The position numbers and the translations under genes were made by a program. Shown in pieces: positions 11,119 through 14,293 of a DNA stretch of 64,000 nt; the first letter of the stretch is position 1, and each line of letters starts with the position of its first letter. The notes under the pieces were generated by a model. That model was not told the DNA's origin. It was given only the letters and a program-made list of their open reading frames with translations, and ran no database searches. Source of the DNA: Escherichia coli (GTDB lineage Bacteria; Pseudomonadota; Gammaproteobacteria; Enterobacterales; Enterobacteriaceae); the NCBI RefSeq assembly GCF_022846255.1, contig NZ_AP025682.1; one strand, written 5' to 3'.

Positions 11119-12081
11119 TTAAAATGCCTGATTAACGCGCGCCAGGCCGTCGCTGATAGTTGCCGCTTCACCCGTAGCCATCAGGCAGCAAGCCATCTGG
11201 ATTTTCAGCGATTCGGGAATCGGTTCGCTGCCAGCAAGGCAACGCTCAATCCACTGCGCCGTGGTTTCCGGATCTTTTGCTTGTGGCAGTAACTCGCTAC
11301 CAGCAGTGTCCTGTTTTTCATACAGTACCCGCATCCCTTCACGGTCAATGAGATTGATCTGCGGGCAGCGCTGCGGATTAGCATACACTTCACCTTCAGT
11401 ACCATGCATTAGTAGCGCCCGCCCGCCGATATCACTAAAGAACTTCGCGACGCGTCCAATGTATTCCGGATGCGAAACGCTGGAAAGACGCAGTGCCTCA
11501 CCTTCGGCAAATGGCGTCGCCAGTTTCGCCAGGGTATGTGCACTGTTACGCACGCCCATCCGCCAGCGCATCGCCAGTTGTTTTTCCAGCGGCGGGCAAA
11601 ACGCGCCGACAGGCATAAACACCGGTTGATGTTCGTCGAGCTTCGCCTGCGCCTGCCCGCCGTGCAACGTTGGCGTAATACCCATCAGTTCGAAAATGGT
11701 TTCTGTCAGCACGCGGGTTGGATCTTCGCTAACCCCGTGAACCACCACGGGAAAACCGAGTTTGTGCAGGAGAATCGCCAACAACGGCGTCAGGTTGGCC
11801 TGTTTACGCGCGCCGTTGTAACTGGGGATGACAATCGGCATCGGCTTGCCTGCAGGCGGCGTCAGCTTGATGGTGTGATTTTGCATGGCTTCGTAAAAGC
11901 CGAGCATCTCTGCTTCCCCTTCCCCTTTGATACGTAGCGCAATCAATACGCCGCCCAACTCAAGGTCAGGGACTTCACTATTGAGCATATGGGCATACAG
12001 ACCGCGCGCAGTATCCCGGTCTAAATCGCGCGCGTGGTTTTTCCCGCGCCCGATCTCTTTAATGATTTTGCGATAGTCCAT
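11119..12081 (-). CDS. ybiB: TrpD-like (glycosyltransferase family 3 fold) protein YbiB
   Basis: 320-aa ORF 27 nt downstream of dinG on the same strand. Confidence 0.9.
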   Translation of the reverse strand: MDYRKIIKEIGRGKNHARDLDRDTARGLYAHMLNSEVPDLELGGVLIALRIKGEGEAEMLGFYEAMQNHTIKLTPPAGKPMPIVIPSYNGARKQANLTPLLAILLHKLGFPVVVHGVSEDPTRVLTETIFELMGITPTLHGGQAQAKLDEHQPVFMPVGAFCPPLEKQLAMRWRMGVRNSAHTLAKLATPFAEGEALRLSSVSHPEYIGRVAKFFSDIGGRALLMHGTEGEVYANPQRCPQINLIDREGMRVLYEKQDTAGSELLPQAKDPETTAQWIERCLAGSEPIPESLKIQMACCLMATGEAATISDGLARVNQAF

Positions 12082-12108
12082 TTACGACTCCTTACCTGAC
12101 TCACATCA

Positions 12109-14259
12109 TTAACGCCGCCGACGGCGTGGGGATTTCGTTTTTTCTTTCTTTTTAACTATACCTTCAGGGACTTCCGGTTGCTCTATCGGAAATACCGGTA
12201 ATGCATCCAGTAGTCGCTTGCCATAATTTTTTGTCAGCAAGCGTTTGTCGTAGATAACCACTTCCCCCCAGCAACCGTGGCTTCGAATCAGTCGCCCAAC
12301 CTGCTGAATCAGGTTAAACGAAGCGCTCGGCAGGCTTTGCACCTCAAACGGATAGCGGTTGAGGCTTTTCAGCCATTCACCTTCGGTGATCACCACCGGG
12401 CTGTCGATGGGCGGAAAAGCGATCTTGTGGATATGCACCTGGCTGAGCAGATCGCCTTTCAGATCAAGACCTTCGGCAAAGGACTGTAAGCCCACCAGCA
12501 CGCTACGCTCACCGTTGGCAACGCGTTTGCGGTGCAGTTCAACTAAGCGATAACGTGGCTGATCGCCCTGCACCAGCAACATCAGGCGTAAATCCGTCAC
12601 ATAGTCGAGAAAGCGCTGCATCGCACGCCCGCTGGCAAACAGCACCAACATACCGAGATGTTTTTTGCTCTCCACCTGTTCACGGAAAAAGGCCGCCATT
12701 TCGGCAATGTGCTGCTCTTCGTTGTCGATGGAAGGCTCAACGCGCATCCGGGGAATAACAATTTTGCCCTGTTCACAGTGGTTAAAAGGGGAATCCAGTG
12801 CCACAAAACGGTCGCCCGCTTTCTCTTTCAGCCCACTCATCTCCTGCAAACGCGAAAAACTGTTCAGCGAACGCAAGGTTGCGGAGGTAACAATAATGTG
12901 CGGAATACTGCGCCACAGCAGCCTTTCCAGCTGATCGCTAACACGTATTCCCACGCAGTGAAACCAAAGGTGTAGCTGCCCTTCGCGCTCTTCCCGCGTC
13001 GCCCATTTGGTCACCGGCGCACCGGAAGATTGCGCCAGAGACGCCAGCCGCCAGAGTTTGCTTTGCGCCTCGAACATCCCCAATGCGCGGTTCATCTGCA
13101 AAATCAACCGATGCAGACGTACAATGTCATGGCTGCCGGTTTTCTCACTTAAATCGTTAAGAAATAACTCCGCCAGGCCACGCAGCATCTCGGTGAGTTT
13201 TGCCAGCCGCTGGCAGATCTCCAGCACTTCATCTGGCAGTTCGCCCATCGCAAAACGGTGCTCTGCCTCCTGCCCGGCAGGCATGTAGAGATTGAGAATG
13301 TTGTTTAACGAGGCGATAAGCTCATACAACTCTTCACAATGCGCATTCAAACGTTCAGGGATCGCCAGCGGCGGGATGGTCTTCGGGCGAAACTGCTCCA
13401 TGCAGGTAGCGACCAGTTTCGTGAACAAGTCCAGCTGTAGCCGATACCACGGCGCGGTGATTTCGGCGCTCATCTCCAGCGCATCCCGCGCCACATCCGG
13501 CAGGTGATGACCTTCGTCCAGCACCAGCAGTAAATTTTTCGGGTCAGGCAATACCGCTTCGCTTTCCATCGCCGCCATCACCAGCGCATGGTTTGCCACC
13601 ACCACTTCCGCTTCCTGAATTTCCCGACGAGCGACAAAAAACGGGCATTCGCGATAGTAATAACAGTTGCGGTTGAGGCAGCTGGCCTTGTCGGTACTCA
13701 AACGACGCCAGAGATCGTCATCAATGGCGATATCAGTATGATCGCGCAGACCATCCCATTTATAAGTGTCGAGATCGCCCTTCAGCTTCGCACAACGTTT
13801 TTGCTCTTCCTGATTGTTCGGCGTCAGTTCATCGTCAAGAAACGCCAGCAGATCCTGTTGCGTGGGCTCAGTGCTGGCGAGCGCTGTCAGATTACGCGGG
13901 CAAACGTAGCGCCCACGCCCAAAAGCGGCAGTGAATTTAAGATCGGGAATGATCTTTTTCAGCAGCGGTAAATCTTTGCTGTAGATCTGATCCTGCAATG
14001 CCACGTTGGCGGTACTTACCACCAGCGTTTTTTGCTCTTCGCGGGCAATGGCGATGCCGGGGATCAAATAGGAGAGCGTTTTCCCAACGCCGGTAGGGGC
14101 TTCAATCGCCAGATGCCGCCCTTCTTCTCCGGCCAGCGTTTTGGCGACGTCCGCAATCATCTGCCGCTGCGGCGCACGGGGAATAAAGTCGGGGATCTGT
14201 TCCTGAAGCGCCTTATACCAGGCGGCAATTTGCGCTTTAAGCGCGGCGGTTAATGCCAT
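12109..14259 (-). CDS. dinG: ATP-dependent DNA helicase DinG (XPD/Rad3-like Fe-S helicase)
   Basis: 716-aa ORF, Walker A APTGVGKT, DEGH box, conserved Cys cluster; LexA operator just upstream. Confidence 0.96.
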   Translation of the reverse strand: MALTAALKAQIAAWYKALQEQIPDFIPRAPQRQMIADVAKTLAGEEGRHLAIEAPTGVGKTLSYLIPGIAIAREEQKTLVVSTANVALQDQIYSKDLPLLKKIIPDLKFTAAFGRGRYVCPRNLTALASTEPTQQDLLAFLDDELTPNNQEEQKRCAKLKGDLDTYKWDGLRDHTDIAIDDDLWRRLSTDKASCLNRNCYYYRECPFFVARREIQEAEVVVANHALVMAAMESEAVLPDPKNLLLVLDEGHHLPDVARDALEMSAEITAPWYRLQLDLFTKLVATCMEQFRPKTIPPLAIPERLNAHCEELYELIASLNNILNLYMPAGQEAEHRFAMGELPDEVLEICQRLAKLTEMLRGLAELFLNDLSEKTGSHDIVRLHRLILQMNRALGMFEAQSKLWRLASLAQSSGAPVTKWATREEREGQLHLWFHCVGIRVSDQLERLLWRSIPHIIVTSATLRSLNSFSRLQEMSGLKEKAGDRFVALDSPFNHCEQGKIVIPRMRVEPSIDNEEQHIAEMAAFFREQVESKKHLGMLVLFASGRAMQRFLDYVTDLRLMLLVQGDQPRYRLVELHRKRVANGERSVLVGLQSFAEGLDLKGDLLSQVHIHKIAFPPIDSPVVITEGEWLKSLNRYPFEVQSLPSASFNLIQQVGRLIRSHGCWGEVVIYDKRLLTKNYGKRLLDALPVFPIEQPEVPEGIVKKKEKTKSPRRRRR

Positions 14260-14273
14260 GAGAAAACCTGAAA

Positions 14274-14293
14274 TACTGTATAAACAGCCAATA
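14274..14293 (-). promoter_or_regulatory. LexA (SOS) operator of dinG, asymmetric box
   Basis: Plus strand tactgtataaacagccaata; reverse complement tattggctgtttatacagta is the known asymmetric dinG SOS box, 14 nt upstream of the ATG. Confidence 0.85.

Follow-up and report, generated by a model that had tools for sequence, protein, structure and literature searches.

Does the gene pair dinG-ybiB in a 64,000-nucleotide stretch of an Escherichia coli genome (RefSeq assembly GCF_022846255.1, contig NZ_AP025682.1; "the window" denotes this whole stretch) form one transcription unit that is governed by a single asymmetric LexA operator, and is this operator touched by the truncation of the neighboring gene ybiA? 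The initial annotation, which was made from the sequence alone, had proposed both. We assign a probability of about 0.9 to the reading of the locus as the canonical dinG-ybiB transcription unit of the E. coli SOS response. The earlier observation was partly confirmed and holds except for its claim about the breakpoint of ybiA. The interpretation attached to it is partly supported; it was right but not new, as SOS-controlled dinG-ybiB is already known and has been published for a decade.

Anatomy of the dinG-ybiB transcription unit

The unit comprises the following features, listed in the direction of transcription.

14274-14293, minus strand: LexA (SOS) box of 20 bp, TATTGGCTGTTTATACAGTA (direct reading, position weight matrix, conservation, published motif).
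14260-14273, minus strand: stretch of 14 nt from the operator to the dinG ATG, TTTCAGGTTTTCTC, with a weak Shine-Dalgarno-like AGG (direct reading).
12109-14259, minus strand: dinG, ATP-dependent 5'->3' Fe-S DNA helicase of 716 amino acids (open reading frame, Pfam, K-12 alignment, annotation of RefSeq relatives).
12082-12108, minus strand: dinG-ybiB spacer of 27 nt (direct reading).
12088-12093, minus strand: ybiB Shine-Dalgarno sequence AAGGAG, 6 nt before the ybiB ATG (direct reading).
11119-12081, minus strand: ybiB, TrpD2-family non-specific DNA-binding protein of 320 amino acids (open reading frame, Pfam, K-12 alignment).
11079-11108, minus strand: terminator-like hairpin with a 10-bp stem, AGCCGGATGA/TCATCCGGCT, followed by TTTTA (fold energy).

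The initial annotation had located the unit at 11119-14293, with ybiB 27 nt behind dinG and an asymmetric LexA box 14 nt from the dinG ATG. Direct reading of the window agrees with it on each of these points, from the end of ybiB at 11119 to the box edge at 14293, with TTTCAGGTTTTCTC between box and ATG and with a consensus right half of the operator next to a left half that reads TTG. The layout is that of a bicistronic operon, with both genes on the same strand, a short spacer in which a generic promoter and terminator scan found no terminator-like site, and a hairpin after the last gene. This hairpin starts 10 nt past the ybiB stop codon, has a fold energy of −18.3 kcal/mol (z = −4.3 versus shuffled sequences), and probably marks the end of the dinG-ybiB operon; the generic scan misses it because its T-run consists of only four T. 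No Rfam family was matched in the region 10800-15000.

Both proteins are nearly identical to their K-12 counterparts (715 of 716 residues for DinG and 318 of 320 for YbiB). The DinG of the window retains the four Fe-S cluster cysteines (Cys120, 194, 199, and 205 in the K-12 alignment) and matches the Pfam families Helicase_C_2 (PF13307), DEAD (PF00270), DEAD_2 (PF06733), and ResIII. With DEAD_2, Helicase_C_2, and the four cysteines together, its sequence has the features expected of an XPD/Rad3-like superfamily 2 Fe-S helicase. For YbiB, the Glycos_trans_3N domain scored above the Pfam cutoff (47.2 bits) and the a/b domain below it (19.5 bits), and its sequence shows no GTGGD-type motif. According to the literature, the TrpD2 family has a TrpD/AnPRT (anthranilate phosphoribosyltransferase)-like fold without the conserved motif for binding phosphoribosyl pyrophosphate, and YbiB is its defining member; judged by its sequence, the YbiB of the window belongs to this family. 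Of 5426 complete E. coli genomes, 5407 matched a 4.3-kb query around dinG-ybiB over at least 80% of its length, and the closest strains, at 99.7–99.8%, include Nissle 1917, NU14, SE15, and ATCC 11775. The anatomy of the locus, its identity with K-12, and its conservation across genera are direct observations.

An asymmetric operator conserved across Enterobacteriaceae

The sequence upstream of dinG reads ...GCCACAATATTGGCTGTTTATACAGTATTTCAGGTTTTCTCATG. The right half of the box is the perfect consensus ATACAGTA, and all five mismatches to TACTG(TA)5CAGTA fall into the left half or the centre, with TTG replacing CTG in the left half-site; in addition, the box has an out-of-register inner CTGT (CTGT-N4-ACAG). 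Owing to the TTG left half-site, neither a consensus search with up to three mismatches nor a search for CTG-N10-CAG recovers it. We scored the window with a LexA weight matrix trained on 16 other published E. coli boxes printed in PMC3009722. With 12.6 bits, the dinG box is surpassed in the window by the uvrB box alone (22.2 bits), while the training sites score 16–27 bits. The uvrB box is itself part of the training set and serves as a positive control only.

33416-33435, minus strand: uvrB LexA box, AACTGTTTTTTTATCCAGTA (best matrix match in the window, 22.2 bits).
31320-33341, minus strand: uvrB.

Conservation of the operator was assessed in 63 loci of other Enterobacteriaceae species, which were recovered through YbiB. 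All 63 carry a box of the type TA[G/T/A]TG[G/T]CTGTTTATACAGTA at a distance of 12–15 nt from the dinG ATG. In a box-anchored comparison of 57 distinct upstream sequences, conservation was 90–100% at positions within the box and the adjoining TG-n-cAcAAT, whereas it was 40–70% in the flanks. The lopsided operator and the extended −10 element described below thus form a sharply conserved island across the Enterobacteriaceae. The left half-site is never CTG in any of these species: most genera have GTG, Escherichia mostly has TTG, and E. whittamii has ATG. This pattern implies that the asymmetry of the dinG operator is an old and maintained feature, as far as can be judged from sequence comparison.

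Rare variants of the dinG operator also occur. They comprise TAATGG... in Escherichia whittamii (locus L011 of our comparison), GGCTATTTAT in Salmonella diarizonae (L028), GTGTCTG in an Enterobacteriaceae metagenome-assembled genome and Kosakonia (L048/L067), and GGTTGTTTAT in Buttiauxella (L050). Such rare natural variants could act as natural mutants for comparing LexA affinity.

Inside dinG, we considered and rejected a second, weak LexA-like sequence, ACTGGATGCATTACCGGT (12194-12211, minus strand), which lies 113–130 nt before the ybiB ATG. It has the form CTG-N10-CGG, scores 10.7 bits, which is below the chance maximum, and is part of coding sequence (LDALPV); the match is probably coincidental.

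Published evidence and proposed mechanism

The LexA control, damage induction, and co-transcription of dinG-ybiB are taken here from the literature. Passages of PMC10123104 and PMC11125620, both citing Schneider et al. 2015 (J Biol Chem 290:19527), describe dinG-ybiB as a LexA-regulated operon induced by DNA damage. A tiling-array study of UV-treated cells from 2010 reported an up-regulated transcript touching "ybiB, dinG" with the motif ATTGGCTGTTTATACAGT upstream (PMC3009722), and the dinG box of the window is identical to this published motif. The gene dinG is also listed in standard SOS-box tables with a heterology index of 8.6 and is treated as a "known SOS box" gene (PMC6590174 among the sources). 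In E. coli, dinG was induced 3.2-fold according to published RNA sequencing data, and in Salmonella, where a single box lies 14 bp from the ATG, induction was 10.6-fold (PMC8072944). Published proteomics of ciprofloxacin-treated cells found DinG increased at 50 min (log2 ratio of 1.56); among the rows listed there, two for YbiB were non-significant (−0.33 and +0.63), with time points not assigned. Moreover, a neighborhood-network study found helicase domains conserved beside 452 YbiB-like genes. The expectation of the initial annotation, that ybiB is SOS-induced together with dinG from the LexA box near the dinG start, is thus supported by the published operon and the UV-induced transcript.

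The predicted promoter of dinG consists of the following elements.

14293-14301, minus strand: predicted extended −10 element, TGcCACAAT, whose last T is shared with the LexA box (phylogenetic footprint).
14317-14322, minus strand: weak −35 candidate, TTACCC, at a spacer of 18 nt (direct reading; not conserved).

The TG and the hexamer positions A2, A4, A5, and T6 of the extended −10 are invariant in the 57 distinct upstream sequences. Other genera have TTGCGA or TTGCGG at a spacing of 17 nt in place of the −35 candidate TTACCC, and in E. coli strain SF-088 this candidate is replaced by phage DNA. We infer the position of the promoter and the geometry of its occlusion from the conservation footprint, according to which the LexA box appears to lie over or next to the dinG promoter. 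Given the base shared by the extended −10 and the box, transcription would start within the operator. No mapped transcription start of dinG or ybiB was found in the literature.

In an undamaged cell, a LexA dimer would occupy the operator at 14274-14293, which abuts the extended −10 and probably covers the transcription start, so that RNA polymerase would be blocked. With a single consensus half-site, the operator would be of intermediate affinity, in keeping with its heterology index of 8.6, and would permit moderate induction. Upon DNA damage, RecA-stimulated self-cleavage of LexA would free the dinG promoter, and one mRNA would carry both dinG, which encodes an Fe-S helicase acting in the removal of R-loops and D-loops, and ybiB, which encodes a TrpD2 DNA-binding protein and partner of ObgE. 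The ybiB gene, 27 nt downstream, would be translated from its own AAGGAG, and the transcript would probably end at the hairpin at 11079-11108.

Several points weigh against this reading. A site as good as 12.6 bits turns up in about 40% of random 64-kb sequences, so the sequence of the dinG box alone proves little. The generic sigma-70 scan, which is uninformative at this locus, calls no promoter for dinG, so that only conservation guided the placement of the predicted one. Apart from the tiling-array table, the evidence for the operon is second-hand through citing papers. Furthermore, ybiB is split from dinG in 12 species, and a TATAGT hexamer is conserved inside dinG; both suggest that ybiB need not depend solely on the LexA promoter, and both are taken up below. 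The first of these points would fit a LexA-like sequence that matches by chance, with dinG-ybiB free of LexA control in this genome, and so would the lack of a left CTG, by which the box escapes simple consensus or CTG-N10-CAG searches. The number of such sites expected in the ~105-nt region upstream of dinG, as derived from the matrix, is ~8e-4, and it is the position and the conservation of the box that set it beyond chance. A chance match is also at odds with the identity of the sequence to the experimentally used K-12 dinG box, with the invariance of the box across the recovered enterobacterial species while the flanks diverge, with its fixed distance of 12–15 nt from the ATG, and with the induction reported in E. 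coli and Salmonella. We regard it as highly improbable and retain the reading of a LexA-controlled dinG-ybiB unit.

The ybiA truncation is a common deletion that stops short of the operator

Upstream of the unit lie a remnant of ybiA and the features connected with it; hcxB is located on the far side, beyond the ybiB hairpin.

14366-14563, plus strand: pseudogene remnant of ybiA (NADAR N-glycosidase), C-terminal 65 codons and stop (Prokaryotic Genome Annotation Pipeline (PGAP), Pfam, K-12 alignment).
14364-14373, no strand: junction of a 298-bp deletion relative to K-12 (K-12 alignment).
14258-14563, plus strand: chimeric open reading frame of 101 amino acids, antisense to the dinG start, crossing the LexA box and continuing in frame into the remnant of ybiA.
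9893-10978, minus strand: hcxB.

That ybiA is truncated, as had been noted initially, is borne out by PGAP, which calls an incomplete "NADAR domain-containing protein" missing its N-terminus and a pseudogene, and by the K-12 alignment. The remnant covers positions 88–162 of the 163 positions of the Pfam profile and thus lacks a complete NADAR domain. The 298-bp deletion (K-12 locus L002:3168-3465) removed 284 bp of 5' coding sequence of ybiA and 14 bp of intergenic sequence. In K-12 the deleted segment is flanked by the imperfect direct repeats CGCAT(C/T)A, which suggest a deletion by microhomology or slippage.

The initial annotation had gone further and taken the operator to be the breakpoint of the truncation and the region upstream of dinG to be a variant one. 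Such a reading, with a deletion that extends to the operator and makes the dinG regulatory region of this strain a variant one, is favored by the truncation itself and by the 101-amino-acid open reading frame, which can make the remnant seem to adjoin the operator. The K-12 alignment, in contrast, places the junction 71–80 nt upstream of the operator edge at 14293, and the ~105 nt between the junction and the dinG ATG correspond to intergenic DNA of K-12, with a few differences that all lie upstream of the −35 candidate. Only residues 33–97 of the open reading frame match NADAR, while its N-terminus is translated intergenic DNA; the frame is probably an artefact, and the impression of a breakpoint at the operator probably stems from it. 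The K-12 alignment thus refutes a deletion ending at the operator, and the variant region was not upheld either, the operator and core promoter being identical in five E. coli upstream contexts. These five contexts share the same sequence from CCCTGAAAACCG... through the box to the dinG ATG.

The deletion is widespread in the species. Among the 5426 complete E. coli genomes, 3429 have the intact K-12 ybiA segment and 1119 have exactly the deletion junction of the window, whereas the remaining ~880 genomes have other contents between rhlE and dinG. Those inspected include espX2, which encodes a type III secretion system effector, in an O157:H7 strain; a hypothetical gene together with a RelE/ParE toxin pair; and, in strain SF-088, a prophage end located 25–28 nt from the LexA box. 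In all compared rhlE-dinG contexts, the breakpoints stop short of the extended −10 of dinG and of the operator. The ybiA truncation is thus a common allele and one of several contents of this slot, all of which spare the dinG operator and core promoter; it is unrelated to the SOS unit and has left promoter and operator intact.

Two observations concern the rhlE-dinG interval itself. It is a hypervariable slot in E. coli (window 14260-14815 compared with loci L002, L004, L005, and L006), and between the rhlE stop and the ybiA remnant, at ~14640-14790, it contains palindromic repeats of the repetitive extragenic palindrome/bacterial interspersed mosaic element (REP/BIME) type (GCCGGATAAGGCG...CGCATCCGGC; TGCCTGATGCGCTACGCTTATCAGGCCTAC). 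These repeats explain why megablast placed the 4.3-kb query at a median of 21 sites per genome.

Uncoupling of ybiB from dinG and a candidate internal promoter

In 67 of 79 informative species-level genomes, dinG is located directly upstream of ybiB with gaps of 2–146 nt. In the other 12 (loci L024, L031, L045, L053, L054, L069, L072, L076, L078, L081, L085, and L086), which belong to Enterobacter, Leclercia, Silvania, Citrobacter amalonaticus, C. sedlakii, and Buttiauxella izardii, ybiB is uncoupled from dinG by a chaperone-usher fimbrial operon on the opposite strand, and the C-terminus of dinG is altered and overlaps the last fimbrial gene. The layout was detailed in one Enterobacter locus (L087:4414-9780), where cecR-rhlE-dinG is followed by the fimbrial operon, 5.4 kb long and oppositely oriented, and then by ybiB, which has a GTG start codon. 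In this locus dinG has retained its box, TAGTGGCTGTTTATACAGTA, at a distance of 14 nt from the ATG, and no LexA-like site was found in the ~220 nt before ybiB. None of the 12 split ybiB genes is preceded by a convincing LexA box; a scan of 260 nt gave less than 8 bits in 10 of these loci and 12.6 bits in the best one, about equal to the score of the dinG box in the window.

A possible source of LexA-independent ybiB transcripts is a hexamer inside dinG.

12155-12160, minus strand: TATAGT inside the dinG 3' end, spanning the codons GGT-ATA-GTT, 73 nt before the ybiB ATG (candidate −10).

TATAGT occurs at this site in 39 of the 63 linked species loci. Of the 40 sequences with Ile there (39 loci plus the window), 39 encode it by the rare codon ATA, compared with ~5% ATA at other conserved Ile columns. 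The wobble T before ATA is invariant, whereas the wobble position of the following Val varies between T, A, and G. Within the 39 sequences that carry TATAGT, an invariant wobble is found at 4 of 142 conserved fourfold sites and at 1 of 20 conserved Ile columns, which is the TATAGT column itself. This codon and wobble pattern suggests selection at the nucleotide level. In 11 of the 12 split species, TATAGT or TATATT is located 32–38 nt before the ybiB start codon.

These data raise the alternative that ybiB is transcribed largely from its own LexA-independent promoter within the final 100 nt of dinG, with SOS read-through as an add-on and YbiB as a "hitchhiker". Preservation of TATAGT at two synonymous positions next to a varying Val wobble, the bias toward ATA, the 12 of 79 species in which ybiB is separated from dinG and lacks a convincing LexA box, and the hexamers upstream of the split ybiB genes would all fit such a promoter, and the possibility of genomic hitchhiking is raised as a caveat on YbiB in a passage of PMC10123104. 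However, the E. coli sequence offers no usable −35 and no TG extension before TATAGT, and promoter scans call nothing either in the window or upstream of the split Enterobacter ybiB. The motif is lacking in 24 of the 63 linked species (in Kluyvera, Buttiauxella, Pseudocitrobacter, Cedecea, and Atlantibacter), it was noticed post hoc, and MAFFT left the motifs of linked and split loci unaligned, so that their homology is unproven. Conservation of the rare codon may also have another cause, and the published UV-induced transcript carries ybiB together with dinG (PMC3009722). We consider a predominantly LexA-independent expression of ybiB unlikely, albeit worth entertaining. If it were true, the SOS coupling of ybiB would be optional, which would favor genomic hitchhiking over a dedicated SOS role.

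With dinG-ybiB retained as an SOS transcription unit, the finding as originally given matters little, as it amounts to the rediscovery of a published SOS operon with one incorrect detail. The checks made on it are of modest use, and the one lead of some value is the possible internal ybiB promoter together with the lineage-specific uncoupling of ybiB from dinG. The non-universal linkage and the possible promoter bear on whether YbiB truly functions in the SOS response or is just carried along by the expression of dinG.

Comparison with known systems

The closest known system is dinG-ybiB of E. coli K-12 (b0799-b0800), which is identical to the locus in the window in its genes and their order, the 27-nt spacer, the 20-bp operator and its 14-nt distance to the ATG, and the core promoter. 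It differs in that ybiA is intact, whereas the window lacks the 5' 284 bp of this gene and deviates at a few bases upstream of the −35 candidate. The dinG box of Salmonella enterica (PMC8072944, Table 1) likewise is a single box 14 bp from the ATG and is identical in its right half and centre. Its left half, in contrast, is TAGTGG, as in most other genera, versus TATTGG in the window, and its heterology index is 10.08 versus 8.6; the induction of Salmonella dinG mentioned above (10.6-fold) was elicited by nalidixic acid. The symmetric uvrB box shares with the dinG box the 20-bp frame and the location in the promoter region of an SOS repair gene, but it has both CTG and CAG and scores 22.2 bits, compared with TTG...CAG and 12.6 bits for dinG. 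Finally, lexA-dinF and recA-recX (PMC6590174) resemble dinG-ybiB in that a downstream gene without a LexA box of its own is damage-induced by read-through, and they differ from it in that the pairing of dinG with ybiB is broken in 12 of 79 species.

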